A DNA stretch of 64,000 nt. Origin: Chloroflexota bacterium. Lineage in GTDB: Bacteria > Chloroflexota > UBA5177 > JANWHV01. The notes under the pieces were generated by a model. It did not search any database. It saw only the letters and a program-made list of their open reading frames with translations, and was not told where the DNA came from. Shown here in pieces: positions 24,927 to 44,757 of the stretch (the stretch's first letter is position 1; each line of letters starts with the position of its first letter). The position numbers and the translations under genes are program-made. Location: contig DATLQX010000141.1 of NCBI GenBank assembly GCA_035534995.1, forward strand, positions 11,424 through 75,423. Reading direction: 5' to 3'.

Positions 24927-26108
24927 ATGAGTTTCGCATCCAGGAATCAGATTATCTCGCTACTTCTGTCGGCGCTGGCCGTGGCCTGCCTGCTTGGTGT
25001 GTGGGGTTATAGTCACTTCACCGCTGGATCGGCTCACCGACCAGCCGCCGTGCCGGTCGTGCCGGCACCGCGCGCGACGCCGGTTCCGGCACGGCAGGTG
25101 AAGACCGGGCGCACTCCCTCGGCCATGGAGGTCGATCCGGTGGACGGCCATGCGTTCGTCGCCGACCTCACCGACAACACGGTCAGCATGTATGAGGTGC
25201 GTCATCTGAGACGAATAAAGGTGATCCCCGTGGGGCAGCGGCCGGTCAAACTTGAATACGATCAACGATCATCGCGCGTGTTCGTGGTCAATGAATCCGG
25301 CAACTCAGTCACGGTGTTGGCCGCGGCAACTGGACGGCTGATCGGTACGACGCCCGTGGGTCGGTCGCCCGAGACCGTCGCGGTGGACGAGGCAACCAAT
25401 CGCGCTTTTGTCGCCAATTATGGCTCGGCCACCGTTTCGCTGCTTGACGCCACGACTGGAAAGCTGCTTCGTGCTGTTCCGGTTGGAACGGGACCAATTG
25501 CCGCCACCGCCGATCAGAGTCTCAACCGCGTGGTGGTGGTGAATCGGGGCAGCGTCGATACGGATCGCCAGCCGACTGGGGACAGTACCGCCGACATTCT
25601 CGATGGCCGCACGGGGGCAAGTCTCCGCGTCCTACGGGTGGGAACTTACGCCTCGGCAGTGCAGATCGACGAAACCACCCACCGCGCCTATGTCGCGAAT
25701 TATGGCAGCGACTCGGTCAGCATGATCGACTTAGTACACAATACCGTGGTTGCTACCATGCCGGTGGGAAAGCATCCCTCGGCGCTCGGAATCGCCCAGG
25801 CTGCCGGCCATGTGTTCGTGACGAACTTCGGGGCCAACACGGTCAGCATGCTGAACGCCAGGAGCGGCGGCGTGTCGCGCGAAATTGGAGTGGGCGCCGG
25901 ACCATGGACCATTGAAGTGGACGCGCGTGGTCATGCCTATGTGTCCGAGACCGCCACCGGGAGGGTGGCGGTCCTGGATACGGTACGCGGCGTGGTCACC
26001 CGCACCGTGGCGACGGGGGAGTCCCCCTCCGAGGTTGGGGTAGATGATCGAACGGGTCAGGTGTTCGTCGTCAATACGCGGAGCAATTCGATCAGTGTTA
26101 TCGATTAG
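24927..26108 (+). CDS. YVTN-family beta-propeller repeat protein (secreted or membrane-anchored)
   Basis: Repeated pattern VGxxPxxVAVD...[16 protein letters not shown], about seven times. N-terminal TM segment. Confidence 0.8.
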
Positions 26109-28207
26109 CTCGCTTTCCGCCGGATCGATCTCGGCGCTTGCGGCTCGGCGGCAATCGGTTGAGTCTGGAGGACGAACTGGTGAATGGCCGCGTCCAGTCC
26201 GGCCGCCAGTTGGGACAATTCCTGGGCGCCGCCCGCAATCTCCCGGACCCCGGCCGTCTGCTCCGCCAGCGCGGATGTCGCGTCGGCGGCCCCAGCCACC
26301 GTGCTGGCGCTGAGTTGAGCGATGCCGCTTATCGCGGAAGTGGCCTGGCTGGTGCCTTCACGCATGGCCTGGGCGGCCTCGGCCGTGGAAGCCGCCACGC
26401 TCGCCACCGCGCCGGCAGCGCCATTGACCGCGGCGACCCGTTGGGTCATGTGATCGATCGCCCGCCCGATGCCGCCTGCCTGGGTGCTGGTTTGCTCCAC
26501 CACTCCCAGAATGCTCTGGAGGGCTGAACGTGCCTGACGGCCCAACACGGTGCTCTTCTCGACCTCCTGGCTGCCCACTTGCATGGCGGTCACCACCAGA
26601 CCAACCTGGTCCTGGATCGCCGCGATCCGTTGAGTGATCCCCCGTGTCTCGTTGCTTGCCCGCTCCGCCAGTTTCCGCACCTCACTGGCAACTACCGTAA
26701 AGCCCTTCCCGTGCTCTCCCGCCCTGGCTGCTTCGATGGCGGCGTTGAGGGCGAGCAGATTGGTTTGGGCGGCGATATCGTCGATGGCGGCGACGATGAC
26801 CCCGATCTCCTTGCTGCTTCTCCCCAGGGCCTCAACTTGCTCGACCCCATGAAGCACGGCGGTTCGCACGCCGTCAATGCTGTGAATCGTCTCATCGACG
26901 GCGACCCCGCCCTGACGCGCGGTGACCGCGGCGGTACTGGCGGCATCGATCACTGCTTGCACATCGCCGGTCGTACGCGCCAATGCGTCCCGCAACTCAG
27001 CCACCACCTCGTCCACATGGCCGAGGGCTTTTCGTTGTTCCAGCGTACCGCTCGCCACCAGGGAAACAGTAGCGGCCAGATCATCCATGCGGCCTGCCGT
27101 GTCAGCCGCCCGGTCGCGCTGACTCTCCGCGTCGCCGGCAACCGAGTCAATGGCGTGGGTGATGCGAGCACTTGTGTGATTCATCCGCTCGGTAGTGCTG
27201 GACAGCGCGGACGCCTTCTCCGCCACCTGAGTAGCGGATCGTGCTACCTGGCCGACCAACTGGCGCAAGTTGGCCAGCATGGTGGCGAAGGCCCGGCCCA
27301 GGTTGTCTTGCTCACTCTGCGGCTCGATCTCACCAGTAAGGTCGCCATCCGCGATGGCATCAGCCACCCCCACCAGCGCTTGTTGGTGTCCCACGATGGC
27401 GCGGAAGGAACGTGCTACCTCGCCCACCTCATCCCCGGTCTCCCGCGTGGGGAGGAGTCCATCGACCGCCGTATCTCCGTGGGCCAGGCGTTTGGCCGCG
27501 TTTGTGATGCTCTGCAATGGGCGGACGATGCTGTTTGCCAATCCGAGACCCAAGATCAGGCTGAGCAAGGCCAACACGCCGAGGCCGATAATCAGGGCCG
27601 TGAAGGTACGGTTATAGGTGTCTTGGGACGACTGATAGAGATCGTTCCCGTGGTACTGTTGAGCGCCCATCAAGCGATAGGTGATGTCGAGCAGGGTATC
27701 CAGGCGATCGTTAAAGAGGGTGGTCAGGCCGTCGATGGCCTGTTGGTGGCCCTGCCGCGACGCCAGGCTCTCGCTGAGCATGCCGTTCCGCACGGTGAGA
27801 AAGTTTTGCCAGGCAGTCGGCCACTTGGCGAGCAGTTGTTGTTGGTCGGCGTCGCCGGCGTGCAGTTGGTAGGCCGCGATCCCGCGCGACATGGCGTCGT
27901 CGAGGGTCGAGATCTCCGCTTGCACGGCCAGGTGGAGAATCTTCAGACCATCGCCCAGACCCTGACCGGCCCGAACCGTGGCATCCTGGGGTCTGGGAGT
28001 CAGGACAAATTGCGTCACCAACTGCCGCATCTGGTCCAGGTTCTCGCTGACCTGGGCCAGGGCAATGGTTGGGGCCAGGCGCTCGCGGTAGAGGACCGTC
28101 GAATTGGAATTGTTCGCGCGGAGGGCGGCGATGGCGACCAGGCAGAGGACAACCACGGGGAGGAAGATTCCGGCATTGCCGGCCAGCATCTTGCTTCGTA
28201 ATTTCAT
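26105..28207 (-). CDS. Methyl-accepting chemotaxis protein (4-helix-bundle sensor, HAMP, MA domain)
   Basis: Highly conserved signalling hairpin [38 protein letters not shown]. Two TM segments and HAMP. The ATG at 28207-28205 overlaps the upstream cupredoxin stop (ATGA). Confidence 0.92.
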
Positions 28208-29016
28208 GATACCACCAAAATCCACGCTTCCATGGGATCGCGGTCAGGGTAGCCGGACGCGCTGTCGTCCCGCGGGACCACGACATTCCAGCCGCCCATC
28301 TGGCCGATTACGCGTGTATGAATGGAACAGTAAATGTGGTAGAGACCGGGCGCGGTAAACGTGACCTGCCTTGTGGCGCCGCCGATCCCTGGCTCCCCGA
28401 CCGTGCCCAGCACCTCGAAGGCGGCCCCGGTTGGATCGTTGGGGTCGGTCACCATGTTATGCGCGTCGGAGTCGCCGTTGTGAAGCAGTACACTCCCACC
28501 CACGTGGATCACCGCCGCGTGCGGAGACATGAGGTCATGGAGCGCGGGCACGTGGATCGCGCTGTCGTAGGGAATGCCCGCGTTGCCGGGTACATAGATC
28601 CATCCCTGCAGCGGCAGATCCTGTGATGGCGCGTTAGGCAGCGAGTTGACCACGTCGTTATCGGCCTGGTAGTCGATAACATGGGCGGTGGATCCGTCAA
28701 AATAATGATAGAGGCCCGGCGTGGTCAGGGTGAGGGACGCGCTCCCGCCGCTCGGCACTGACAGCGAGAATTGGGCCGGATCATGCGGAGCGGCGGTAAG
28801 TTGGAGCGTCTGGGCCATCGCATTGGTGAACTCAATCGACTGGCCTGGCTTGGCCAGGGCCACTCTAGGGGTGAAGGCCGGGGTCGCGGCTGATACCTGA
28901 ATGGTTATCGGCGCGGCCTGGGTGACGCCGGGATGCAGCCACACGAGGCTGATTGCGGTTAGGGGTATGAGTACCGCCAGAACAAGGAGCAAGCGAACCG
29001 ATAGCTTTCGGGGCAT
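28204..29016 (-). CDS. Secreted two-domain cupredoxin-like protein; the C-terminal domain has a plastocyanin-type Cu site
   Basis: Signal or TM N-terminus. Second domain: AHNMVTD ... [20 protein letters not shown] (His...Cys-x2-His...Met ligand pattern). First domain: [13 protein letters not shown], which lacks the Cys. Confidence 0.7.
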
Positions 29017-29410: not shown

Positions 29411-30265
29411 ATGCCGAAGATCAGTACCGATCGGGTGGTGGAAAGTCTTCCCTGGCTGGACAGCGTGGCGTCCGTCCTGGCAAAGGCTCTGGCGCCCATC
29501 CTGGGGCCGGAAGGAGACGCTCGGGTGAAGGACGCGCTCTATGGCACCTGGCTTGGTCATCCATTGCACCCGGCGCTCGTCTCGATGCCGATCGGTTTCT
29601 GGACCTCCACGGCTGTGCTCGATCTGTGTGGTAGGGAAGCAGAGGCCGATCTGACCCTTCAGCTGGGCTTGCTCAGTGCCCTGGGGGCGGCGGCATCAGG
29701 TGCCGCGCAATGGCAGGACACGCAGGATATGGTCAAGCCGAGGCGACTGGGCGCCCTTCACGCCACGCTCAACCTGGCCGCTGTAGCGGTGTACGGTACG
29801 TCCTGGTGGTTACGCGCGCAGGGCTCTCGGAAGGCTGGGGTCGCGGTCGCGATGGCCGGCCTCTCAATGGTGAACGTCTCGGGATGGCTGGGTGGTGACC
29901 TGGCGTACGTCCTGGGCCTGGGGGTGAATCGCGCCGCCTTTGAACCGCCCCTTACGGACTGGGTAGACGTTTTGGCCGACGCGGAGATTGAGGAAGGAGG
30001 CAAGGCGCGCATTGAGGCCAACGGAGTTCCTATTCTGCTCTCCCGCCGGGAGGGAAAGGTATGGGCCATCGCCGCGACCTGCACCCATCTCGGGGGACCA
30101 TTGGCGGACGGGACCGTGGAAGGGGACACTGTCACCTGCCCATGGCACGGGTCAACCTTCGACCTACGCGATGGCAGTGTAGTTCACGGCCCGGCCACCA
30201 TTCCGCAGACCTGTTTTCGGGTCCAGGTGCGGAATGGGCGAATCGCGGTACGCTCGGAGGCATAG
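29411..30265 (+). CDS. DUF2231-type membrane domain fused to a Rieske [2Fe-2S] domain
   Basis: LYGTWLGHPLHPALVSMPIGFW (DUF2231-like TM region). Rieske boxes CTHLGGP and CPWHGSTF. Confidence 0.85.
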   Translation: MPKISTDRVVESLPWLDSVASVLAKALAPILGPEGDARVKDALYGTWLGHPLHPALVSMPIGFWTSTAVLDLCGREAEADLTLQLGLLSALGAAASGAAQWQDTQDMVKPRRLGALHATLNLAAVAVYGTSWWLRAQGSRKAGVAVAMAGLSMVNVSGWLGGDLAYVLGLGVNRAAFEPPLTDWVDVLADAEIEEGGKARIEANGVPILLSRREGKVWAIAATCTHLGGPLADGTVEGDTVTCPWHGSTFDLRDGSVVHGPATIPQTCFRVQVRNGRIAVRSEA

Positions 30266-30381
30266 CCGGTCCCTACGTTCCACGGCGGCGCCGGGCCGGT
30301 CGTGACCGGCAGGCGTTCGCGACCCGCGACGGACCAACGCCGGGCTCACATCTTCGTGGCCGCTTGGGGAGGCGACCTTTG

Positions 30382-31233
30382 GTGAGAAGCATTCCGCGGA
30401 TCATCCTGGCCGGACTTCTGGCGGGAATGGTCCTCACGGCCGCTCCGCATCGCTCGACCCAGGGCGCGGGGATGCTCCAGATCCTGGCCTCGGTTGGAGG
30501 CCAGCCGGATGACATCACGATAGGCGCTCTCGGCGGTCTACTTTGGGGCGATCTCGCGCATGGGACCATTCGTAAACTCGTCGGTGGACGCACGACGACG
30601 GTAGTCCGTGGTCTCTCCGTGCCGGAAGGAATCGTGGTTCTCCCATCAGGATCCCTGGTGGTTGCCGAGCAAGGGAAGGACCGGGTGGTCCATGTCGCTC
30701 GGAACGGAACCAGCAGTATCCTCTACCCGCTGCGTCCAGTGCCCGGTCAGGATGGAGTCGATGGGATCGGTCGAGACCCACGAACCGGTGACCTGTTGAT
30801 CCCGGACTCGCCGCGCGGAATGGTCCTGGACCTCAGTCCTGATGGACGGCACGTCCGCGTGATCGCGCGGGGGCTTGGCCGCCCGGTTGACGCGGCGGTC
30901 GACCGGCGTGGTGACGTTCTGGTTCCGGACGAAACCCTGGGGACACTCGTAGTCATCACCCCCGGAGGGCGTATCTCCCGGGAGGGAACATTCCTCACCC
31001 CGGATGATGTCGCGGTGGACCATGCGGGGCGGGTATGGATCACCACGCTCGGCGATGGCGGTTTGTGGACTATCGACCCCGGTACAACCACTCCCAGGCG
31101 CGTGGTCGAGGGCCTGGCCGACCCCCAGGGCCTCACCCTCGACCGCTGCGGCGACCCCATCATCGTCGACCAGACTACCGCCTATATCGTGCGCTGGCTG
31201 CTCACTCCCGCCTCGGCGCGCTGTCCGATCTGA
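30382..31233 (+). CDS. Secreted beta-propeller protein (NHL / SMP-30-gluconolactonase-like)
   Basis: The GTG at 30382 lies 9 nt after GGGAGG. TM or signal segment RIILAGLLAGMVLTA, then repeated blades (PEGIVVLPSGSLVVAE, PVDAAVDRRGDVLVPD, PDDVAVDHAGRVWITT, PQGLTLDRCGDPIIVD). The longer track ORF would overlap the Rieske gene. Confidence 0.65.
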   Translation: MRSIPRIILAGLLAGMVLTAAPHRSTQGAGMLQILASVGGQPDDITIGALGGLLWGDLAHGTIRKLVGGRTTTVVRGLSVPEGIVVLPSGSLVVAEQGKDRVVHVARNGTSSILYPLRPVPGQDGVDGIGRDPRTGDLLIPDSPRGMVLDLSPDGRHVRVIARGLGRPVDAAVDRRGDVLVPDETLGTLVVITPGGRISREGTFLTPDDVAVDHAGRVWITTLGDGGLWTIDPGTTTPRRVVEGLADPQGLTLDRCGDPIIVDQTTAYIVRWLLTPASARCPI

Positions 31234-31416: not shown

Positions 31417-31615
31417 ATGCCGTGTCGATCCTCGCACACCCGGCCGCGGCCGTCGTCCCTGCCATCCGGCCTCAGCCGGGGGCCTTAACCGCCGCGGGCC
31501 ACCCTGGAAAGCTGGAGCCGGTTGACGGCAAGTGGTTCCGCGGGGCATCCTATGCCTACGAACGGCGCCGCGCGGTGTTGATGCCGCGAAGCAGGATGGA
31601 GAGAAGGCTGTTCAC

Positions 31616-32746
31616 ATGCGGACTCACCTTGCCCATATCTTTACCGGAGTCATTCTTGTTCTGACTCTGCTCGGGCCTCTCCCAGTCGCCGCGTCAGCAC
31701 GCTCGGTTTCGCCGCCAAGCCGGCAGCAGTTCACTTACCTGGGCGCGTCTGGCCCAATCGTGAGCGGACGGCCAACTCGTATCCCCAGTTATACCCTCGC
31801 TTTCCCGCTTGGCTGGACCGCGCAGCCCTGGCCGGATACGCTCGCCGGTTATGGGCAGGTCGCTCTGCGCGCACCCGGGGGCGGCGCTATCGACCTGGTG
31901 ATCCTGCCGCTGCGCCGGCATGGGCCCACGCTTGCCAATCTGATCAAACACGACCGCGCCTACTTCCCCAACGCGATCCAGGACGCGATCAGCCTGCCAC
32001 CTGGAAGAGCGATTCGTCTCTCGGGGACGCGCGGCGGCTCCGGGGTGGCAAACCAGATCCTGTACCTTGAGCGCCACGGAGTAGTCTATCGCTTCTTCTC
32101 CGATCAACCGCTTGGTCCCGCTCAAGATACCGTGCTCGCGCCGCTCGCGGCCGGCCTTCACGTGCCGGCGGTGCCAGGCGCCCGCCCTGGTGTCTTTCCG
32201 CCCCCGCCCGTCTCGCCCGCGTCCGGATCGACCTGCTGCCACTGCCCGGCCCTGGGGCAGAGTTGGGGGAAGGTACTTACCCATGTTGACGGCATCCCCG
32301 TCTTTTCCAACGCCGGAGACATCGATAACGGCTGCAATGGCACCACGGGCACGCTCTATCAGTGCGTCGAGCTCGTGCAGCGCTACTACACCCTCCGCTG
32401 GGGCTACCCCGCGATTTGGGGCGGGGTCGGCGGCGCCGCCGACATGCCCACGCACCACCCGGCCGGGATCACGTTCATTCCCAATGGCGGATCTCCGGGC
32501 CCAAGGGAGGGCGACGCCGTGGTGTTTTATGGTGGTTATTTTGGCCATGTCGCCCTGGTGCGGCACATCGACCGAAGCAAGGGCATAATTGATCTCGTGG
32601 AGGAGAATTGGTCGCCCACCGGGACGGCCAGCCTGACGATCTTTCCCGACAATACGATCGCCATCCGCGATAGCGCGTATGGGTCGTACACGGTGGCAGG
32701 CTGGTTGCATAGCACGTTGAATCATCCAACGTCCCCGAAGGACTGA
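31616..32746 (+). CDS. Secreted CHAP-domain protein (peptidoglycan amidase/peptidase) with an unassigned N-terminal domain
   Basis: Signal peptide. CHAP Cys context LYQCVELVQRYY and His context GYFGHVALV. GGAGAGAAGG lies upstream of the ATG at 31616. Confidence 0.8.
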   Translation: MRTHLAHIFTGVILVLTLLGPLPVAASARSVSPPSRQQFTYLGASGPIVSGRPTRIPSYTLAFPLGWTAQPWPDTLAGYGQVALRAPGGGAIDLVILPLRRHGPTLANLIKHDRAYFPNAIQDAISLPPGRAIRLSGTRGGSGVANQILYLERHGVVYRFFSDQPLGPAQDTVLAPLAAGLHVPAVPGARPGVFPPPPVSPASGSTCCHCPALGQSWGKVLTHVDGIPVFSNAGDIDNGCNGTTGTLYQCVELVQRYYTLRWGYPAIWGGVGGAADMPTHHPAGITFIPNGGSPGPREGDAVVFYGGYFGHVALVRHIDRSKGIIDLVEENWSPTGTASLTIFPDNTIAIRDSAYGSYTVAGWLHSTLNHPTSPKD

Positions 32747-33032
32747 ACGCGGTCATCTCCAAATGCCGCGCGGCCGCCCTGGCGGGTAGCCTTCTTTCAA
32801 AAGGCAATCTTTACCGTGATCCTGACACTTTAGGGTCAGGTTCTTGAGCGCCCACTTGTCCCGATCGCTCCATCACGCCCTCCGGTTGTATGGCGATTGT
32901 CACGGTCTTGGCAGGGTGCTGTCCATGGTGGCCGCGGGTCTGCCGGCTCAGAATGGGATCAGTGGCGGACGCGGCTTCCGCCCACCCGCTGGCGGTTCGT
33001 CAGGTCGGAATCAATGATCGGAGAAACACCCT

Positions 33033-35276
33033 ATGTACACCAAGCGTGCTCTCGGAACGGCGGTGGGAGCCCTTGCTCTCACGGCCGGCCTCCTCGGTCC
33101 CTACGCCCACCCTACCGCCGCCCAACCCGCGGCGAAAACCCGCGCGACCGCGGCGCAATACAGCCTCCAGAGGATTTCCAGCCCCAACGATCCCACCTTT
33201 ACCCAGTTGCTCGGGATCAATGATCAAGGGAGGATTGCCGGTTATTTCGGGAGCGGCCAGACGGTAAATGGCGATCTTCACCGCAACCAGGGCTTTACTC
33301 TCCGTTTGCCGTCCAGCTTCAAGGCCGAGAACGTGCCCCACGCGGCCCAGACGCAGGTCATCGCGATCAATAATCATGGCGACACCGCCGGCTTCTACAT
33401 TGACCACCAGGGGACGACCCATGGATTCCTGGAATCCGCTGGCCGTTTCCAACGCGCGGATCGGCAAGGGATGCCGTTTAATCAAATCCTCGGGTTGAAT
33501 GATCACGGACAAGCAGTGGGGTACGATCAGGATGCCCAGGGACACGATCATGCCTATATTCGTGACCGGCATGGAAGATTTACCCTGCTTCCGCTTACCG
33601 ATAGCCAGGCGACCGGGATCAACGACGCGGGGACGGTTGTGGGCTTTACCCAGCCATCGGCTGCCACATCGGCCGGGTTCATCCTCGAGGGTGGCCTCCT
33701 GAGTCTCCTCATCTATCCGGGATCGGCCTTTACCCAGGCCCTGGGCGAGAATACGTCGGGGCAGGTAGTTGGTTTTTACCACGATGGCGCGGGAAACTCG
33801 CACGGATTCATCTATGACACACACGCGCGGACCTTCCAGACGGTGGACGTGCTGGGCGCGTCCAGTACGACCCTGAATGGGATCAATAACGCCGGCCAGG
33901 TAGTTGGCTTTTTCACGGATGCCAACGGGAATACGGTCGGTCTGGTGGGCACGCCTGGTAGCGGCCAAACGGGGACAACGTCGACCGCGACCGCCACGCC
34001 AACCGCCAGTCCTAGCGCGTCGCCGACCGCGACTCCCACCGCCACGTCGACCATGACCAGCACCCAAACCATGAGTTCCACCATTAAGATTGGGCTGCTC
34101 TTGCCGTTCAGCGGCACGAATGCCGCACAGGGGCTCTCGGCCGAGCAGGGAGCGCAATTGGCGGTGAATCAGGCGAACGCGGCGAACCTGGTGCCTGGGG
34201 TCAATTTCGTACTCTCGGCCAGGGATGATCCCGGGAGTGCCAATGCACCAGGAAGCGATGCTAACCTTCAGGCCCTTACCAACGACCCGGAGGTAGCCGG
34301 GATCATTGGCCCCTTTGACACCACCACCGGTCGTGTCGAACTGCCGCTTGCCAATAAACTGGACGTGGCTCTGGTCAGCCCCTCGGCCGGCGATCCCTGC
34401 TTGACCAGCAGCGACGTCGCGGCCGGCTGCATCGGGAGCCCCTTTACTCTCGCCTCCGTGCGCCCAACCACCAATCTTACCTTCTTCCGTATCATCCCTA
34501 CCGACCCGAAACAGGGTATGGCGCTTGCCGACTATTTGTATAAGGTGCGGCATTTCCTCACTGCCTACGTCGTGGATGACACCGGTGCCTATGGCATCGG
34601 CGTGGCGAACGCCTTCAGTAGCGAATGGCAGTTGAATGGCGGAGTGGTGGTCGGACGAACCAGTGTGCCTGAAGGAACTGCCTCGTTTATCAACCTGCTG
34701 ACCCACATCGCGGTGGCACGCCCAGACGTGATTTTCTTCGGGGGCAGCGACCCGGCGTCGGGCTCCCCCGACAGTATCGCCATTCGCCGGCAAATGCTCC
34801 AGGTTCCTTCGCTAAAAGACACGGCTTTTGCCGGTGGAGATGGGATCGATACACCTCAGTTCGCCCAGGCGGTTGGTGCGTTTGGCGGGCCAGTCTGGAG
34901 CACGCTCACCCCTGCCGACCCCGCGGGCGTACCGGGGGCAAGCGCCTTCGTGGCACAGTATCAGGCCGCGTTCGGCGCCCCCGGCCGGTACAGCGCGAGC
35001 GGGTACGACAGCGCCAATGTTCTGCTCACGGCCATCGCCGCCGCCTTCAAGAAGGGCGCCCAGACACCAAGCGGCCCCGGCGCCGCGACGGAAGCAACGG
35101 CACTCCGCCAGATGGTGGTGGCGAACGTGGCGTCCACCTCGCTGGTTGGCGTGACCAACCCGGTCAGCTTTTCCCCTACTGGCGATCTCACCGAGGGCTT
35201 GATCAGCATCGAGCAACTTGGGAACGTGAATGGAGCACCTGGCTGGCAGCCGGCGGCGATCCAGAAAGTGCGATAA
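33033..35276 (+). CDS. Secreted fusion: HAF-like repeat (six repeats) - Thr/Pro linker - type I periplasmic binding protein (LivK / Peripla_BP_6-like)
   Basis: Six repeats of GIN(D/N)xGxxVG(F/Y)...HGF. Linker TSTATATPTASPSASPTATPTATST. Then IKIGLLLPFSGTNAAQGLSAEQGAQLAVNQANA...GIIGPFDT..., typical of Leu/Ile/Val-type binding proteins. Confidence 0.8.
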   Translation: MYTKRALGTAVGALALTAGLLGPYAHPTAAQPAAKTRATAAQYSLQRISSPNDPTFTQLLGINDQGRIAGYFGSGQTVNGDLHRNQGFTLRLPSSFKAENVPHAAQTQVIAINNHGDTAGFYIDHQGTTHGFLESAGRFQRADRQGMPFNQILGLNDHGQAVGYDQDAQGHDHAYIRDRHGRFTLLPLTDSQATGINDAGTVVGFTQPSAATSAGFILEGGLLSLLIYPGSAFTQALGENTSGQVVGFYHDGAGNSHGFIYDTHARTFQTVDVLGASSTTLNGINNAGQVVGFFTDANGNTVGLVGTPGSGQTGTTSTATATPTASPSASPTATPTATSTMTSTQTMSSTIKIGLLLPFSGTNAAQGLSAEQGAQLAVNQANAANLVPGVNFVLSARDDPGSANAPGSDANLQALTNDPEVAGIIGPFDTTTGRVELPLANKLDVALVSPSAGDPCLTSSDVAAGCIGSPFTLASVRPTTNLTFFRIIPTDPKQGMALADYLYKVRHFLTAYVVDDTGAYGIGVANAFSSEWQLNGGVVVGRTSVPEGTASFINLLTHIAVARPDVIFFGGSDPASGSPDSIAIRRQMLQVPSLKDTAFAGGDGIDTPQFAQAVGAFGGPVWSTLTPADPAGVPGASAFVAQYQAAFGAPGRYSASGYDSANVLLTAIAAAFKKGAQTPSGPGAATEATALRQMVVANVASTSLVGVTNPVSFSPTGDLTEGLISIEQLGNVNGAPGWQPAAIQKVR

Positions 35277-35480: not shown

Positions 35481-36041
35481 ATGACTGAAGTTGAGCGCTC
35501 CCTGGAATCCTTGCGCGCCCGCGTCGCGGTCCTGGAGACGGAGAACGGCCGGCTTCGACAGGCGAGTCCCGGCGTGGAGGCGGCTGGACGCGAGCTGCCT
35601 CGACGGTCGCTTCTGGTGGCCGGCCTGGGGCTCCTGGGAGCCGCCGCCGGCGGTGAGATTCTGGCTCAAGGACAGACCGCCCTCGCGGCCGGGGACGGCT
35701 CCTCCGCCGGATCATCCACCCTGGGATCCGCGGTGATCGGCGCCCAGTTTCGCCAACCCAAGCTCCTGGGCATGCGGGTGGCTCTGCGGGGCCAGCGGAG
35801 CAGTATGGCGACCTTTGCCCGCTACGAGTGGTCATTCGGGAAGCAGTTTACCGACAGGCAGCCGCCGATCGTGCTGGCATCGGTCCTTGATCCGGCCCTG
35901 AACGTCCTCCCCGGTGACGCGCCGGTCTGCTCGGTGTTTGTCTACGGCAGCCCAGGGGCGTACGCCGCGATGATCACCGTGCACAACCTGGGTGACGCCA
36001 CTCCTACGGTTGAAGTGAATTTGCTCGCGTTCGGCGGCTGA
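35481..36041 (+). CDS. Hypothetical anchored protein: N-terminal coiled coil, RR-containing TM/TAT-like segment, C-terminal beta domain (H-type-lectin-like is a guess)
   Basis: AAGGAGGG SD. LESLRARVAVLETENGRLRQ; RRSLLVAGLGLLGAAAGG; C-terminus YEWSFGKQFTDRQPPIVLASV...VCSVFVYG...YAAMITVHNLGD...VEVNLLAFG. Confidence 0.55.
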   Translation: MTEVERSLESLRARVAVLETENGRLRQASPGVEAAGRELPRRSLLVAGLGLLGAAAGGEILAQGQTALAAGDGSSAGSSTLGSAVIGAQFRQPKLLGMRVALRGQRSSMATFARYEWSFGKQFTDRQPPIVLASVLDPALNVLPGDAPVCSVFVYGSPGAYAAMITVHNLGDATPTVEVNLLAFGG

Positions 36042-36050
36042 TCAGGGCGC

Positions 36051-38264
36051 TTATTCCAGCCACCAGGACTGGAGGCAGGTAGCACGGGGGACCATCCCCG
36101 TATCGGCGAGCGTGTCACCGCCATGTCGGCACACGCTCAAGGTGGAGACCCGGCCCGACGGCGCCTGGAGCACGGCCGCCGAGGAGCTTTCATATAACGG
36201 ATTTTCTCCCATACGGTACGCGGAGGTAGCGGCCCCTTCGAGAAGCCAGGCGCTCACCACCGGCGCGCCCATCGCCAGATCGGCGCCAAACGGACCCGCC
36301 ACGCCATCATTGGCATACAGCTCCGTCCTATAGCCGACTACCGCATGGAGGCCGCCAAAGACAGGCAGCCAATCGCGGTACGGCGCCGTCGTATCCTCGG
36401 GCGAGGCGATCAGGGACGGGGTGCGCGCCACCCAAAACGCCAGTCCGGCTTGCTTCCCTCTCGCGCCGCCCAATGCGCCCAGACTGGCGACGTTCACAGC
36501 CCCGCCGGTATAGCGGTCAGTGATAAAGTGCCCCTGGCCACCCGGTGCCTCCGATTCCAGGACTCGCGCGGTGTTCGCGTAGGCGGCAAAGTTCCGGGCG
36601 GTGGTGAAGGCGGCCGGGGTGGAGGAGGGTCCGATCCTTCCGGGCGCTCCCGCCAGGCCCTGAAGTCTGGGCCAGAAGGACAGGACTCCCTGCTGGAAGG
36701 CCAGGGAGTCCTGGTGCCAGGCCGGCATCGGTCCCTGGACCACGAACCGCGCGATCCCATCACTGTCTAGATCAGCCGGGCCGGCGGAGCGACTGCTCGC
36801 GGCGATGGTTGGTCCCAGGGTAGGCAGTGGTTCCGGCTCGCGGGCCGCCACCGGCTCATAGCCGATGACGTGATCGACGGCCACGCCGCCCGCGTGAACG
36901 GAGGCGGTGAAGCGATAGGCCGGTTCGAGATAGGATTGGTTTCCGTCGTAATAGGTGAGAGCGATGCTGTCGAGCGTGACCGGTAGGCCGGCGCCGACCG
37001 TCGCCAGTTGGGCCTGGATCGATCCGAGCACATCGCCGGCTGGGCGCGGCGTCAAGAGGAATCCCGCGAGCACGGCGGTACGCCAGCTACGGATATAGCC
37101 TTGGAGGGAACCATCAGGCCCGAGCACGAGTGCCGCCCGCGATCCCGGGCCGTAGACGGGGAAGACTCCTACCCTCCGAGCCACCGGGAAGAAGATCAGT
37201 CTGGTGCTCCTGGTTCCGGGCCGCTGGCCCGACGCCAAGGTGCCGGCAAACAGCGGCTGCGCCAACAGGCTCTTGGTCGCGTCACGAGGAATCAGGGCGC
37301 TGGTGCCCAGAACGGCTTGAGCCGCTTGCGTTAGCCGCTCGATCGGGGCCATGGTTGGACCAGCAGCCGGGAGGACGGGAAAGACGGCGCTATCGCCGGT
37401 TTCCCAGTCGGCATACGCTACTAAGCGCGTTCCATCGTACCCGGCAACGATGTGCGTTCCGTGCTGGTCCGGGATAGTCATGATCCTTGCGCGCGGTGAC
37501 AGCCGATCGAGCTGGCCGAGCATAAAGTTGAGTGGCGGCGCCGTGCGGACGAGGCGATAGATAGGCAAGGGACCGCCGATCGCGCGGAAGGTGGGTGGCA
37601 CGCTGGGGACGGGAGTCGCCGTCGCTACTGCCGTGGAAGAGGCGATGGGAGAGGCGAGCGAGGCTACCGTGCTGGTGGCGGATGCCGGGACGGTTGGGGT
37701 GGCTGTAATGGTAGGGGTAGGGGTATCGGTATCGGTATCAGTGGGGGTCAGGGTAACGGTCGCGGTCACGGCGATCGTTTCGGTAACGGTAGGGGTAGCG
37801 GTCGCGGCAACGACTACGGTGAAGGGCGCCGAGGGACTGAGATCGCCCACGCGCACGATAAAGAGGTGTTGCGGTCCTGGCAGGGCGCCGGCCGGCACCT
37901 GCTCGGTCACGGAAGCCCCCGTGCAGTCGGCGCCGAAGCCGAGGGTGGGCGCGGCTCCTGGGACGCCGGTGCAGGCTGCCAGCTTCTGGGTATCGATCGG
38001 CGAACCAGTGTCAAAGACGATGGCGGCGGTCAGGCCCTGCTGCCCAAGGGTCGGGTCGAACCCGACGGCGCTTAGGGACACGGAACTGCCCGGAAGGCCG
38101 GATTGTGGCTGCACGGTGATGGTGGGGCCCGCCGCCGCGTGGACGACAAGCGGCACGCCGCCGCGGTTCATGGCATCCGGTGCCCCCAAGGACGCCAATA
38201 GCAAGGCCAGCGAGGCAGTGAGGAGGCCGCGAATGTGCGTGCGCCGAAGCCCCATATTCCTCAA
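36051..38264 (-). CDS. Large secreted protein of unknown function (signal peptide, Ig-like N-domain, Thr/Pro/Asp linker, approx 500-aa unassigned region)
   Basis: 737-aa ORF. AAGGAGG lies upstream of the TTG/ATG start. LLTASLALLLASLGAP signal. Linker ATATPTVTETIAVTATVTLTPTDTDTDTPTPTITATPT. I recognise no family for the remainder. Confidence 0.7.
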   Translation of the reverse strand: MRNMGLRRTHIRGLLTASLALLLASLGAPDAMNRGGVPLVVHAAAGPTITVQPQSGLPGSSVSLSAVGFDPTLGQQGLTAAIVFDTGSPIDTQKLAACTGVPGAAPTLGFGADCTGASVTEQVPAGALPGPQHLFIVRVGDLSPSAPFTVVVAATATPTVTETIAVTATVTLTPTDTDTDTPTPTITATPTVPASATSTVASLASPIASSTAVATATPVPSVPPTFRAIGGPLPIYRLVRTAPPLNFMLGQLDRLSPRARIMTIPDQHGTHIVAGYDGTRLVAYADWETGDSAVFPVLPAAGPTMAPIERLTQAAQAVLGTSALIPRDATKSLLAQPLFAGTLASGQRPGTRSTRLIFFPVARRVGVFPVYGPGSRAALVLGPDGSLQGYIRSWRTAVLAGFLLTPRPAGDVLGSIQAQLATVGAGLPVTLDSIALTYYDGNQSYLEPAYRFTASVHAGGVAVDHVIGYEPVAAREPEPLPTLGPTIAASSRSAGPADLDSDGIARFVVQGPMPAWHQDSLAFQQGVLSFWPRLQGLAGAPGRIGPSSTPAAFTTARNFAAYANTARVLESEAPGGQGHFITDRYTGGAVNVASLGALGGARGKQAGLAFWVARTPSLIASPEDTTAPYRDWLPVFGGLHAVVGYRTELYANDGVAGPFGADLAMGAPVVSAWLLEGAATSAYRMGENPLYESSSAAVLQAPSGRVSTLSVCRHGGDTLADTGMVPRATCLQSWWLE

Positions 38265-38296: not shown

Positions 38297-38388
38297 CATC
38301 CCGAAGCGAATAGGGATGTCACTACTCAATGATCGCGGCAGAATTCACTCCGGTTTGGGGTGGTGGATCGACCGAAGGAGGCAATAGG

Positions 38389-38868
38389 GTGGCATTCAAT
38401 GCCTATATCATCTTTGAAGGCGAAAAGCAAGGAAAGTTCAAGGGAGATTCGACCCTTGCCGCCCCGGCAGGCTCTTCTCGGCTGTTAGCGTACACGTACG
38501 AGGTGACCTCCCCGCGTGATATCGCCTCCGGTTTGCCCACCGGCAAGCGCATGCATAAGCCTTTCGTCATCCTCAAGGAGTGGGATGCCTCGTCCCCGCA
38601 AATGCTCCAGGCATGCGTCGCCAACGAAGTCCTGCGGGTAGTGACTCTTGCGTTTCATCGAACTACATCTTCTGGTGAGCAACAACTCTACCATACAGTC
38701 ACGCTCAGCAACGCCACCATCTCCAACTTGAAACAGTATGTCGCGGATCCAGTCCTCGCGGCGGAATACGACGCGGCTGATCTGGAGGAGGTTTCATTTA
38801 CCTACCAAAAGATCACGATCTCCTACACGCAAGGCAATAAGTCGGCGGTAGACGACTGGGAAGCCTAG
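38389..38868 (+). CDS. hcp: Hcp (TssD) family type VI secretion tube protein homologue, orphan
   Basis: GTG at 38389 with GAAGGAGG 6 nt upstream, giving 159 aa. VAFNAYIIFEGEKQGKFKGDS...YEVTSPRDIASGLPTGKRMHKPFVILKEWDASSPQMLQA...GEQQLYHTVTLSNATISNLKQY...EVSFTYQKITISYTQGNKSAVDDWEA parallels Pseudomonas Hcp2/3-type blocks (PRDPQSGQPTGQRVHKP..., FTYRKITW..., SDDW) as recalled. Confidence 0.85.
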   Translation: MAFNAYIIFEGEKQGKFKGDSTLAAPAGSSRLLAYTYEVTSPRDIASGLPTGKRMHKPFVILKEWDASSPQMLQACVANEVLRVVTLAFHRTTSSGEQQLYHTVTLSNATISNLKQYVADPVLAAEYDAADLEEVSFTYQKITISYTQGNKSAVDDWEA

Positions 38869-39954: not shown

Positions 39955-41325
39955 ATGGCGGCTCAGGACGAGGCAGACAGGCGCGATATTCCAGCACACG
40001 GCGAAACCGATGGGAAGTCGGGGGCGCGTGGACCGAGCAGGCGCCAGGTACTCCAGGCGGCCGCGGTCAGCGGGGCGGCATTGGCCGGTACCACGATCCT
40101 TGAGGGCACGTCTTCGGTTCGGGCCAGCGCCCGCTCCCGTGCCTCGGGGACGATCAAGATTGGTTTTGTCAGCCCCCGCACAGGCCCGGCGGCGGGATTC
40201 GGCGAGCCTGATGGCTACGTGCTTGGGCTGGCCAAAAAGGCGTTCGCCCGCGGTCTGACCATCGCCGGCAGTCACTACAGCGTGGAGATCATTGACAAGG
40301 ATAGCCAGTCGGGGCCGCGGAGCGCCCAGGTCGCGAACGACCTAATCAACGGCGATCAGGTTGATCTCCTGCTGACCACCTCCGCGCCGGAGACCGTCAA
40401 TCCCGTCTCCGATGCGGCCGAGGCTTCGGGCGTACCTTGCGTGTCCACGGTAGTCCCCTGGGAATCCTGGTACTTTGGGCGCCAGGCCAATCCAGCCAAG
40501 CCGGTCCCGTTCAAGTTCACCTATCACTTCTGCTTTGGCGTGGCCCAGTTCGCGGATGCCTATACCCACCTCTGGCCCGAGGTGGCGACCAATCGGAAGG
40601 TTGGAGTCATGTGGCCGAACGACGCTGACGGCAACGCGATTCGGGCGAACCTGGGACCGGCCCTGAAGAAGGCAGGCTACACCATTGTTGACCCCGGCGC
40701 CTATACCGACGGCACGAACGACTATTCCTCGCAAATCTCGAAGTTCAAGTCCGAGAACTGCCAGATCTTCAATACGTTTCCCATTCCTCCCGACTTCGCC
40801 ACGTTCTGGCGGCAGGCCGCGCAACAGGGCTATAAGCCCAAGATCGCCCAGATCGCCAAGACCGGGCTCTTCCCCTCGCAAGTGGATTCTCTCGGCTCGA
40901 TTGGCGCCAACCTGGCCAGCGCCGTCTATTGGGGACCGACCTGGCCCTACCGGTCTTCCCTGACCGGCGTAACCTCGAAGGATCTGGCCTCCGGCTACGA
41001 ACATTCCGCCGGCAAGCAATGGAATCAGCAGCTTGGCGCCAGCCTTGCCCTGTTCGATGTCGCCGCCGCTGTCCTCGTGGCGAGCGGCAACCCCAAAAAT
41101 AAGGCAAAAGTCGCCGCCGCCATGGCGCGCCTCTCCGTGGATACCCCGCTCGGTCATCTCGCCTGGGGCAAAGGCCCGCTGCCTCCGAACGTGGTCGCCA
41201 CTCCGATCATTGGCGGCCAATGGCGGGCGGTGAAAGGCAGCAAATACCAACTGGACTTCGTCATCTGTGAACATGCTTCCGATCCGCGAGTTCCCATCGC
41301 CTCTAAACTGACCCCCTATAGCTAG
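39955..41325 (+). CDS. ABC transporter substrate-binding protein (Peripla_BP_6 / LivK-like; probable aromatic-acid binding by context) with a TAT-type signal
   Basis: SRRQVLQAAAVSGAALAG twin-arginine motif. IKIGFVSPRTGPAAGFGEPDGYVL. GGGAGG SD. Confidence 0.85.
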   Translation: MAAQDEADRRDIPAHGETDGKSGARGPSRRQVLQAAAVSGAALAGTTILEGTSSVRASARSRASGTIKIGFVSPRTGPAAGFGEPDGYVLGLAKKAFARGLTIAGSHYSVEIIDKDSQSGPRSAQVANDLINGDQVDLLLTTSAPETVNPVSDAAEASGVPCVSTVVPWESWYFGRQANPAKPVPFKFTYHFCFGVAQFADAYTHLWPEVATNRKVGVMWPNDADGNAIRANLGPALKKAGYTIVDPGAYTDGTNDYSSQISKFKSENCQIFNTFPIPPDFATFWRQAAQQGYKPKIAQIAKTGLFPSQVDSLGSIGANLASAVYWGPTWPYRSSLTGVTSKDLASGYEHSAGKQWNQQLGASLALFDVAAAVLVASGNPKNKAKVAAAMARLSVDTPLGHLAWGKGPLPPNVVATPIIGGQWRAVKGSKYQLDFVICEHASDPRVPIASKLTPYS

Positions 41326-41331
41326 CCAAGG

Positions 41332-42081
41332 TTGTACCAGGGTAATGACGAGAGGCCGATAGCGGTGACCACCCCACTGTTGGAAGCAGCCGGCGTGGGC
41401 CGGCGCTTCGGCGCTCTGGTCGTGCTCGACGGGGTCGATTTTAGCCTTGGAGCCGGCGAGGCGGTCGGGATCGTCGGCCCCAATGGGGCTGGGAAGACCA
41501 CGCTGCTGAATATACTGGCCGGAGCGCTCCGCCCGACCACGGGCAGGGTTCGACTGCGGGGCTCGGACATCACCAACCTGCGGGTGGATCGCTGCTGCCG
41601 GTTGGGCATTGCCCGAACCCATCAAGTGCCGCGCCCCTTTGGCGGCATGACCGTTTTTGAAAACGTTCTGGTCGGCGCCACACTTCGTGGTCCCGCCGCC
41701 TATACCCATGGAAGTGAGGTGCTCGAACTCTGCGGGCTGATCGAGTTGGCGAATCGCCGGGCCGACAGTCTCGGCCTGCTCGATCGAAAGCGGCTGGAAC
41801 TGGCGCGCGCCCTCTCCACCAGTCCCGCGGTATTGCTTCTGGATGAGATTGGCGGCGGCCTCACCGACGCCGAGGCAGCGGACCTGCTGCTGACCATTCG
41901 GGAGGTGCGGCGGCGGGACATCGCCATCGTCTGGATCGAACATATCGTCCATATCCTGATGCAGGGGGTGGACCGCTTGGTCTGCCTTGACGTGGGGCGG
42001 GTGATCGCGGACGGGCCACCCGAAGCGGTGCTGGAAAACGCCGCCGTGATCGACGCCTATCTGGGAGGTAGTCACCCTTGA
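41332..42081 (+). CDS. ABC transporter ATP-binding protein (LivG-like)
   Basis: Walker A GPNGAGKTT, LELARAL...LLLDEIGGGL. An alternative GTG start at 41365 follows GAGAGG. Confidence 0.9.
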   Translation: MYQGNDERPIAVTTPLLEAAGVGRRFGALVVLDGVDFSLGAGEAVGIVGPNGAGKTTLLNILAGALRPTTGRVRLRGSDITNLRVDRCCRLGIARTHQVPRPFGGMTVFENVLVGATLRGPAAYTHGSEVLELCGLIELANRRADSLGLLDRKRLELARALSTSPAVLLLDEIGGGLTDAEAADLLLTIREVRRRDIAIVWIEHIVHILMQGVDRLVCLDVGRVIADGPPEAVLENAAVIDAYLGGSHP

Positions 42082-42803
42082 GCCTGCTTGAGGTGGAATC
42101 CCTTGACGCCCGCCATGGTCTGCTGCACGCCGTTCGTGGCCTGTCGCTTTCGGTGGCGGAGGGAGAAACGGTGGCCCTGGTTGGGGCGAACGGGGCGGGA
42201 AAAACCACCCTCCTGCGGTGCATCGCGGGCGCGCATCGCCCGGCGTCCGGCCGGATCATCTTTGACGGTAGTGATATTACGGCGGTTCCCGCCCATAAGC
42301 GGGTACGCCTGGGGATCGCCCTGGTTCCCGAAGGCAGGCGCCTATTTCCTGGGTTGACCGTGGAGGAAAACCTGCTTACCGCCGGGGCGCGGGGCAGGCC
42401 CGGCCCCTGGACCGTTGCTCGGGTATTGGAGGCATTCCCCCTCCTGGCTCCTCTACGCAAGCGACCGGCGGCGACCTTGTCCGGGGGACAGCAACAGGCG
42501 GCGGCGATCGGGAGGGCCTTGATGAGCAATCCGCGCCTCTTGCTCCTGGATGAGGTGTCGCTGGGCCTTGCCCCGATCGTGGTGGACGAAGTGTATGCAT
42601 CCTTGCGGTCGCTCATCGAAACTGGAGCCACCCTCCTCCTGGTCGAGCAGGACCTGGCGCGGGCGATGCGGGTGGCGGCGCGAGTGGTGTGCATGCTTGA
42701 GGGACGGGTCGTGCTTGAGGGAGCGTCGGGCGAGCTGACGCGCGAGCGGATAACCGCCGCCTACTTTGGTCTGAGCCGGGTGGCCGGGTCGGAGCGCCGC
42801 TGA
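42078..42803 (+). CDS. ABC transporter ATP-binding protein (LivF-like)
   Basis: Walker A GANGAGKTT, signature LSGGQQQ, Walker B LLLLDEVSLGL. The TTG start overlaps the previous stop (TTGA). Confidence 0.9.
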   Translation: MSLLEVESLDARHGLLHAVRGLSLSVAEGETVALVGANGAGKTTLLRCIAGAHRPASGRIIFDGSDITAVPAHKRVRLGIALVPEGRRLFPGLTVEENLLTAGARGRPGPWTVARVLEAFPLLAPLRKRPAATLSGGQQQAAAIGRALMSNPRLLLLDEVSLGLAPIVVDEVYASLRSLIETGATLLLVEQDLARAMRVAARVVCMLEGRVVLEGASGELTRERITAAYFGLSRVAGSERR

Positions 42804-43681
42804 TGGACTGGGTCAATGCCATCATTCAGGGGATCCTGCTTGGCGGTCTCTACGCGCTCCTCGCCTGTGGCCTCTCGCTGACTTTTGGTGTCATGCGGAT
42901 CATCAATCTTGCCCACGGCGACATCGCAATTCTTGGGGCCTATTTGGTCTGGGAAGTGGTTGATCGTACCACCATGTCTCCCTTTCTGGCCGCGCTGATC
43001 GTGCTGCCAGGCATGTTTGTCCTCGGCTACCTGCTCCAGATCCTCCTCCTGGAGCGGAGCCTGCGGGCCGGCCCGCTCGTGCCGCTCTTGACCACCTTTG
43101 GCCTGGCGATCGTGATCCAGAATCTGCTCTTGCAAGTGTTTTCACCCGACGTACAGTCTCTCGGAGGCAACGCGGGAATGATTACCACCGCCAGTTGGCG
43201 GATTACCGATCAGCTCTCAATCCCAGGACTGGGTGTCTTGATCCTGGTGGTGGCGGTTGTTACGCTCGGTGCCTTGCAGCTCATCTTGACCCGGACCCAA
43301 CTTGGCCGAGAAATGCGGGCCACGGCCGAGGATCCCGATACCGCGCGCCTGGTCGGGATCGACGCGCGCGCCGTGTATGCCCGCGCCACGGCGATCGCCG
43401 TGGCGACCGCCGGCCTGGCCGGTTTGTTCCTGGCCATCCGTTCGACCTTCGATCCCTCCAGCGGCCCCACCCAACTGATTTTCGCCTTTGAGGCGGTGGT
43501 GATCGGCGGGTTTGGATCGCTCTGGGGAACCCTGCTTGGCGGCATTGTCCTGGGGGTCGCCCAGGCAATCGGCGAACAGATCGACCCCCAATACTCGATT
43601 CTCGCGGGCCATCTGGTCTTCCTTGCCGTCCTGGCCTCGGGGCGGGGCAGTCTCCTGGTTGCCAGGGGAGCGTGGACGTGA
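42803..43681 (+). CDS. Branched-chain-type ABC transporter permease (LivH-like)
   Basis: MDWVNAIIQGILLGGLYALLACGLSLTFGVMRIINLAHGD hallmark. The start overlaps the previous stop (TGATG). Confidence 0.9.
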   Translation: MDWVNAIIQGILLGGLYALLACGLSLTFGVMRIINLAHGDIAILGAYLVWEVVDRTTMSPFLAALIVLPGMFVLGYLLQILLLERSLRAGPLVPLLTTFGLAIVIQNLLLQVFSPDVQSLGGNAGMITTASWRITDQLSIPGLGVLILVVAVVTLGALQLILTRTQLGREMRATAEDPDTARLVGIDARAVYARATAIAVATAGLAGLFLAIRSTFDPSSGPTQLIFAFEAVVIGGFGSLWGTLLGGIVLGVAQAIGEQIDPQYSILAGHLVFLAVLASGRGSLLVARGAWT

Positions 43682-44757
43682 TCAACCAGCAACAGCGCGC
43701 GCCGCGCGTCGCCTATGCGGTCCAGCGGTGGACCACCCTCTCCTACGCATCCACCGCCGGCGCCGGGGCGCTGATTGTGGCCCTAGTCTTCGTCCCGCTC
43801 GTCCTTGGCACGAACCTGACGCAGCAGCTTACCTCCCTCCTGATCCTGGTTATCCTGGCCGTGACCTGGAATGCCCTGGCCGGCTACGGTGGCCTGATCT
43901 CGGTTGGCCAGCAAGCCTTTATCGGCCTCGGCGCTTACGGAACCATCTATCTTAATCAGCGCGGCGTGCCGCCGTATCCGGCCATGGTGTTGGCCGCGAT
44001 CGGGGCCGGAGTGATCGCGGCGCCGGTTTCGCTGCTGGTGCTCCGCTTACGGGGCGGCCAGTTCGCCATCGGCACCTGGGTAGTGGCCGAGGCTTTTGCC
44101 CTTATTGTCGTGCTCGACCAATCGCTTGGCGGTGGCACCGGCATCTCCCTCACCACCCTCGATGTGTATAGCCCGTCCGCCCGCCAGGCATACACCTATT
44201 GGCTGACCCTGGCGGTGGCCGTGATCCTTCTCGCGGCGCTCTTCTTTCTCTTGCGGAGCCGCCTTGGCACCGCCTTGCGGGCGATTCGCGATGACGAGGA
44301 GGCAGCGGCTTCGGTCGGCGTCCCGGTGATGCGGACCAAGCGCGTGCTCTTCATCCTGGCCGCGTGCGGTTGCGGTGCCGCCGGGGCCTTGACCCTGGCC
44401 AGTACGCTCTTCGTCGAGACGCAGTCGGTTTTCGGCGTGCAATGGTCGGCCTATATGATTTTCATCGTTCTGGTCGGTGGGCTCGGCACCTTCGAGGGAC
44501 CGATCCTGGGGGCGATTATCTTCTACTTTCTCCAGAACCAATTCGCCGACTACGGCGCCTGGTACCTGGTTGGACAGGGGGCCACGGCCATCGCCTTCGC
44601 CCTGTTTCTCCCCCGCGGCCTCTGGGGCACGGTCGAATCGCGGTTCCACGTCAGTCTGCTTCCGGTAGGCTATAGGCTGCGCCAGGTCGGGTCTTCCGCG
44701 GCCGGTCGGACGCCGCCACCCGAGGACCGCGGCCCGACGGGAGGGCGAGATGGCTGA
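43672..44757 (+). CDS. Branched-chain-type ABC transporter permease (LivM-like)
   Basis: NALAGYGGLISVGQQAFIGLGAY hallmark. GTG start at 43672 or 43678, overlapping the livH-like stop. Confidence 0.88.
   Translation: MDVINQQQRAPRVAYAVQRWTTLSYASTAGAGALIVALVFVPLVLGTNLTQQLTSLLILVILAVTWNALAGYGGLISVGQQAFIGLGAYGTIYLNQRGVPPYPAMVLAAIGAGVIAAPVSLLVLRLRGGQFAIGTWVVAEAFALIVVLDQSLGGGTGISLTTLDVYSPSARQAYTYWLTLAVAVILLAALFFLLRSRLGTALRAIRDDEEAAASVGVPVMRTKRVLFILAACGCGAAGALTLASTLFVETQSVFGVQWSAYMIFIVLVGGLGTFEGPILGAIIFYFLQNQFADYGAWYLVGQGATAIAFALFLPRGLWGTVESRFHVSLLPVGYRLRQVGSSAAGRTPPPEDRGPTGGRDG

Follow-up and report, generated by a model that had tools for sequence, protein, structure and literature searches.

Solute-binding proteins are normally read as parts of transporters, and annotation pipelines have named the proteins described here in that way. 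In a stretch of 64,000 nucleotides from a Chloroflexota bacterium (assembly GCA_035534995.1, contig DATLQX010000141.1, positions 11,424 to 75,423; hereafter the window), the gene at 33033-35276 joins such a binding domain to six HAF repeats. Is this fusion a genuine protein, and does its binding domain still serve an importer? Our analysis shows that the fusion is real and conserved and indicates, from sequence relationships, that its binding half arose from receptors that were anchored by a lipid and served LivHMGF-type importers. We read the whole, with restrained confidence, as an orphan receptor tethered by a propeller. The kind of protein is well known; the domain architecture is new.

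The fusion of HAF repeats and a binding domain

The gene comprises 747 codons and a stop, in one frame that no internal stop interrupts. The four parts assigned to it by the initial annotation (leader, six repeats, linker and type I domain) were all borne out, and are arranged as follows:

33020-33024, + strand: Shine-Dalgarno-like GGAGA, read directly from the sequence; the ATG lies 8 nucleotides 3' of it
33033-35276, + strand: whole gene, 747 amino acids; full-length orthologs in five other assemblies at 56-65% identity
33033-33122, + strand: Sec-type signal peptide, residues 1-30, no lipobox; from sequence features, with a predicted cleavage site
33159-33956, + strand: HAF-repeat domain, residues 43-308, six four-stranded blades; from TIGR02913, six repeat cores, AlphaFold2 and Foldseek
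33957-34073, + strand: flexible Thr/Pro/Ser/Ala linker, residues 309-347 (about 40 residues); from composition, low predicted local distance difference test (pLDDT) scores and variable length in orthologs
34074-35273, + strand: two-lobed type I binding domain, residues 348-747, LivJ/LivK-like; from Peripla_BP_6, PDB sequence matches and Foldseek
34398-34430, + strand: C456...C466 loop, probable disulfide; within an insertion of about 20 residues relative to 3hut

By sequence, the leader consists of K4/R5, a hydrophobic stretch at residues 6-22 (17 residues) and then PTAA and Q across the predicted cleavage site. On inspection it contains no lipobox, and its residues 1-40 are modelled at pLDDT <50. 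Six repeat cores of the form [AG][ILE]N[DNT]xGxx[VA]G[FY] start at residues 61, 111, 154, 195, 238 and 283, in tandem repeats of about 43 residues each that run across residues 61-308, and an H-[AG]-[FY] motif, as HGF or HAY, is present in blades 2, 3 and 5. The NCBIfam model TIGR02913 (HAF_rpt) scored 42.5 bits against a cut-off of 22.65, which places the domain in the HAF family. The family had been named correctly beforehand under the wrong accession, as TIGR03803 gave no match in the profile search of the protein and TIGR02913 is the matching model. The score of Pfam DUF3466 for the repeat domain stayed under its cut-off, and Pfam NHL (PF01436) gave no match in the fusion protein at E <= 0.1.

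AlphaFold2 modelled the whole protein at a mean pLDDT of 86, with the leader and the linker disordered; the linker (16 T, 8 S, 6 A and 5 P among 42 residues counted) has a pLDDT of 32-56. When modelled alone, the repeat domain reached a pLDDT of 96.4 and a predicted template-modelling score (pTM) of 0.92, with 24 strands in six four-stranded blades, the last of which is completed by the N-terminal strand 43-48. The HAF repeats thus model as a closed six-bladed propeller. Foldseek matched this half to Pizza6 designs, the Mycobacterium tuberculosis PknD sensor (1rwi), TolB and Brat NHL, at template-modelling (TM) scores of 0.6-0.74 and 11-16% identity, and there was no PDB match for it at the sequence level. 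With the PknD sensor and Pizza6 it would share a symmetric propeller of six four-stranded blades (TM 0.67-0.74). Unlike the PknD sensor it carries no attached kinase; it matches no NHL profile, and the predicted likeness to NHL is at fold level only.

In the other half, Peripla_BP_6 (PF13458) covers residues 350-695 (E 1e-31, 111 bits against a gathering score of 31.7), placing it in that family, and ANF_receptor also matches (E 3e-12). The entries 3hut, 4n0q, 3td9 and 4gnr match it by sequence in the PDB, and Foldseek returned LivK, LivJ and leucine-binding protein (LBP) at target TM scores of 0.75-0.87. This agrees with the full type I binding fold proposed for it earlier. The domain resembles E. 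coli LivJ/LivK and the cluster-B Leu/Ile/Val-binding proteins (2liv, 2lbp, 1z15, 3td9, 4gnr, 4n0q) in its type I fold, its Peripla_BP_6 match and its predicted export. Unlike these proteins, to which it is only 18-23% identical, it has an insertion of about 20 residues with two cysteines, an N-terminal propeller of about 270 residues with a linker, and no permease or ATPase genes in cis. These two cysteines, C456 and C466, are the sole cysteines of the whole protein and are invariant among the fused orthologs; the first of them is also found in NHL fusions and several free relatives. They probably form a disulfide.

A search for the same architecture elsewhere, as had been proposed, yielded five further proteins that have it, at 56-65% identity, in assemblies taken from NCBI, ENA, JGI and Logan; one of these orthologs sits on a 1.3-Mb contig of a metagenome-assembled genome (MAG) of the same genus. 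Among the fused orthologs identity is 62-73% across the propeller and 57-66% across the binding half, while in the alignment the linkers vary from about 15 to 60 residues and the frame is never broken. The similar conservation of both halves across a variable, in-frame linker argues for a functional two-domain protein and not a misassembly.

The fusion is also rare. In a HMMER pass over 1.84 billion representative proteins, a single representative spanned both halves. Among 60 related genomes it was found in one genome of the same genus, with contig-end pieces (75-76% identity) pointing to a second, and it was absent from the findings in two other genomes of the genus (83-87% complete) and in the genomes searched outside it. 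The architecture is carried by only one small group, made up of soil Chloroflexota that are uncultured.

Descent of the binding half and its pocket

In a maximum-likelihood tree of the binding domains, the HAF fusions and a set of NHL fusions form one clade (support 99/100), whose sister is a free binding protein followed by a LivH-type permease gene. The closest free relatives, one of them from Dictyobacter (WP_126600430.1), are 42-50% identical, and all have a canonical lipobox (LAAC/LSAC) followed by a Gly/Ser/Thr-rich leash. Two of the free relatives (P0253 and P0257) head operons of a binding protein, two permeases and two ATPases (LivHMGF-type), and one other relative is an orphan. As these closest relatives are lipoproteins, two of them heading importer operons, the ancestor would have been a lipid-anchored importer receptor, and the tree indicates that the binding half descends from such receptors of LivHMGF-type importers. 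The fusion shares with the Chloroflexota lipoproteins (WP_126600430.1, P0253 and P0257) the Cys loop and a flexible N-terminal leash; it differs in having the propeller where they have the lipobox. In the HAF fusions the propeller thus seems to have taken the anchor's end of the leash, and the gene seems to have left the operon.

The NHL fusions (P0028, P0029, P0252 and others, about 900 residues) have the binding domain first, then an immunoglobulin (Ig)-like domain and then an NHL propeller. They resemble the HAF fusions in their sister binding domain (45-49% identity), their orphan state and a six-bladed propeller, and differ in the opposite domain order and in carrying NHL instead of HAF. 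A candidate 'Rosetta stone' locus (L039), in which NHL and binding-protein genes appeared separate and adjacent, was rejected: P0256 and the next open reading frame (617 and 330 residues) are a frame-split NHL fusion that aligns with the C-terminal part of P0029 at 76% identity, and the NHL gene upstream of P0256 is a paralog. This split copy (L039 6001-8800) comes from the same metagenome series as the HAF-fused ortholog P0005 (L003 9024-11027), in which the frame is lost near residue 620; both breaks are either assembly indels or real decay.

More distant binding domains, 35-38% identical, lie at the C-termini of P0137, P0235, P0154, P0188 and P0208. The N-termini of this group carry TIR_2 with TPR, or a caspase (Peptidase_C14) with HATPase_c_4. 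From their domain order, these proteins look like couplings of an outside flytrap to death- or defence-type effectors.

We then compared the ligand pocket by aligning the binding domain (MAFFT) with its relatives and with E. coli LivJ and LivK from NC_000913.3, taking the LivJ ligand-contact residues S79, A100, T102, Y150, Y202 and E226 as the amino-acid-binding reference; at about 20% identity the residue assignments are provisional. In this alignment the equivalents of LivJ S79, Y150, E226 and F276 are Thr430, Tyr520, Asp603 and a Tyr/Phe. The pattern is kept in all three orthologs that are complete in this region and is common to the free relatives, which suggests that the pocket works and would take a small ligand with an amine group and, probably, a carboxylate.

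A proposed tethered receptor, importers and possible roles outside transport

No Liv permease or ATPase gene was found near the fused genes in five contexts (the window, two orthologous loci and two NHL-fused relatives), and the LivHM permeases and LivGF ATPases with which Peripla_BP_6/HAAT members are encoded accompany neither this gene nor its orthologs. The initial annotation's remark that no liv genes are adjacent holds for the adjoining genes, while a complete Liv-type importer lies 4.7 kb downstream (39955-44757; binding protein, two ATPases and two permeases), with its own binding protein carrying a twin-arginine translocation (TAT) signal. Across the organism's own genome (93% complete, 424 contigs) we counted seven Liv-type importers and nine Peripla_BP_6 domains, seven of which are beside permeases; the only two genes of this family without a neighbouring permease are the fusion gene and one encoding a 902-residue Ser/Thr kinase fusion. 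Searches by tblastn with LivH and LivM queries, both from E. coli and from the window, placed Liv-type permeases on exactly the seven contigs with binding proteins.

The 902-residue kinase (G000:C49, L032 4128-6836, - strand) has a membrane segment and an extracellular Peripla_BP_6 domain. Its gene is clustered with those for a PP2C-like phosphatase, an FHA protein and a vWA protein.

The reading that we hold as somewhat probable is a propeller-tethered orphan receptor. A two-module protein would be exported, made of a six-bladed HAF propeller, a Thr/Pro-rich leash and a LivJ/LivK-type 'Venus flytrap'. The flytrap would close on a small, probably amino-acid-like solute through Thr430, Tyr520, Asp603 and the Tyr/Phe at the LivJ F276 position, and the propeller may grip a macromolecular partner at the cell surface or close to it, thereby positioning the receptor. 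E. coli LivJ and LivK share one permease system, LivHMGF; in the same manner the captured ligand could be handed over in trans to one of the seven Liv-type importers, or the protein could have a role outside transport. For this last step hand-over in trans seems to us fairly plausible and a role outside transport nearly as plausible, so that within the tethered-receptor reading transport in trans is slightly favoured. The earlier view that the protein acts rather than as a transporter component in some other way is consequently not established, given the descent from importer receptors, a pocket pattern that is mostly kept and seven importers available in trans; its sensor, scavenger and adhesin readings are possible.

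Several observations weigh against the tethered receptor. On the side of the importers, tblastn found none in the genome that is without its own binding protein. In the pocket, the equivalent of LivJ T102 is Gly in all HAF fusions and Thr in the free relatives, and the equivalents of Y18 and Y202 are variable (Y202 becomes Ser or Asn), so that the ligand may be no standard amino acid. The NHL-fused sister clade has lost the equivalents of Y150, E226 and F276, which suggests a lineage drifting from classical binding. As to the tether, the operon-encoded binding proteins of the genome are also without lipoboxes, and loss of a lipobox may therefore not call for a new anchor. Moreover, an Acidobacteriaceae MAG protein (L025 7920-8921) and Rhodopila MAG proteins (L027 7662-9365) contain propellers about 50% identical to this one; the former has a PEP-CTERM tail and the latter an RTX-like tail, and in both the propeller is a passenger, not an anchor. 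Finally, HXT37620.1 (P0108), an NCBI protein of 400 residues, is 82% identical to the binding half alone, begins exactly where the linker ends and has no signal peptide; it is most simply read as a gene model that was truncated or frameshifted, and it may represent a split or truncated form.

We also considered that the propeller replaces the lipid anchor because the organism needs one. A search that gave hits to Omp85/BamA in control diderm genomes gave none in this genome, which is 93% complete, so the cell is probably single-membraned. The idea was weakened by the operon-encoded binding proteins, which are without lipoboxes even though Lgt is present in the genome.

The strongest alternative, which we consider possible and hold tentatively, is an extracellular ligand-binding protein outside transport, in which a secreted propeller protein would use the flytrap to sense or sequester a ligand. 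Such a protein might serve as a scavenger, as an adhesin that depends on its ligand, or as a co-receptor switching on a kinase of the membrane or a chemoreceptor. The orphan state is kept in all five fused contexts, the ancestral lipid anchor is gone and every Liv-type importer of the genome already has its own binding protein. In addition, one clade of binding domains has been joined to two different six-bladed propellers in opposite order, the NHL-fused sisters have a remodelled pocket, and Ser/Thr kinases, TIR proteins and caspase proteins use related binding domains as their sensor heads. There is also a precedent for signalling by Peripla_BP_6 proteins through chemoreceptors, such as BasB through BasT, in a review that mentions no propeller fusions (PMC8050422). 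However, no transducer gene is conserved beside the fused genes, whose neighbourhoods differ between the window and the L001 and L003 loci: these share no conserved neighbours at all, and no conserved kinase or chemoreceptor gene in particular. A chemoreceptor gene (26105-28225) lies 5 kb from the fusion gene and has no counterpart in L001 or L003; unlike in the BasB/BasT and LuxP/LuxQ pairs, no transducer gene adjoins the fusion gene. The pocket pattern, too, still matches that of free relatives within importer operons, and it is common for an orphan binding protein to share a permease, as the position of E. coli livJ outside livKHMGF (NC_000913.3) illustrates. A broader proposition, that one Liv-type lineage left ABC (ATP-binding cassette) transport to become the small-molecule-sensing arm of secreted propeller proteins, with HAF in this genus and NHL in the sister clade, appears to us rather doubtful.

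That the protein is the dedicated receptor of an importer missing from the assembly, with the propeller as a neutral add-on, is improbable. The genome is incomplete and many BPD_transp_2 permeases lie on short contigs, but the ortholog in the sister genome, on its 1.3-Mb contig, has no Liv genes within 10 kb, and a propeller as conserved as the binding half fits poorly with a neutral add-on. Least credible of all is an artefact, with a HAF gene and a binding-protein gene run together because the assembly is wrong or because a stop or frameshift within the low-complexity linker was overlooked: repetitive Thr/Pro-coding linkers do break assemblies, HAF paralogs of the same genome end at contig edges, one ortholog (in G004) lies in two pieces on separate contigs and the P0108 model begins precisely at the linker's end, yet six sequences from four sources (NCBI, ENA, JGI and Logan) hold one frame across linkers of differing length, an ortholog is present on the long contig noted above, and a binding protein beginning at the linker would be without a signal peptide.

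The propeller elsewhere, the neighbourhood and what the fusion may mean

In the same lineage, propellers 45-63% identical to that of the fusion are joined via similar linkers to CHRD or Ig-like domains. The identity of about 50% across phyla, in the tailed proteins described above, suggests that the HAF module moves horizontally among acid-soil bacteria, and these partners point to the propeller as an extracellular module that is mobile and functions in its own right. The fusion resembles other extracellular HAF-repeat proteins (TIGR02913; DUF3466) in its repeat signature and predicted export; unlike those with the usual partners (CHRD, Ig-like, RTX-like, PEP-CTERM), it has a solute-binding partner, in one small cluster only. 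Our search of the literature on the function of HAF repeats, DUF3466 and TIGR02913 turned up nothing. Two proteins of about 750 residues with a HAF propeller 37-38% identical (P0033 and P0037) are deposited under the chytrid Physocladia obscura; they are probably bacterial contamination of that assembly, or possibly a transfer.

Around the fusion gene, the two upstream genes (30061-31233 and 31532-32746, both + strand) encode an exported propeller-like protein with weak NHL/SGL matches and a secreted CHAP-domain protein, respectively; with these exported products, the fusion sits within a run of exported proteins. Downstream, a small coiled-coil protein of 186 residues (35481-36041, + strand) and a secreted DUF6345 protein of 737 residues (36051-38264, - strand) are encoded beside a lone Hcp (38329-38868, + strand; T6SS_HCP E 1e-26). 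The first of these genes bears no relation to the one that follows the ortholog, and all three appear unrelated to the fusion. A scan for promoters and terminators gave nothing above chance.

The restriction to a small group of uncultured soil Chloroflexota limits the reach of the finding. A line of receptors seems to have exchanged its lipid anchor for a propeller, in two cases with propellers of different kinds, and to have moved out of its operon. Should the lineage also have left transport, its members would be a class of dual binders, free outside the cell and taking both a ligand and a macromolecule, such as ligand-gated adhesins or proteins for capture. If the propeller acts as a tether or binds a partner, the fusion would reveal a further means by which bacteria with a single membrane keep or deploy receptors, and would offer a first functional handle on HAF repeats.

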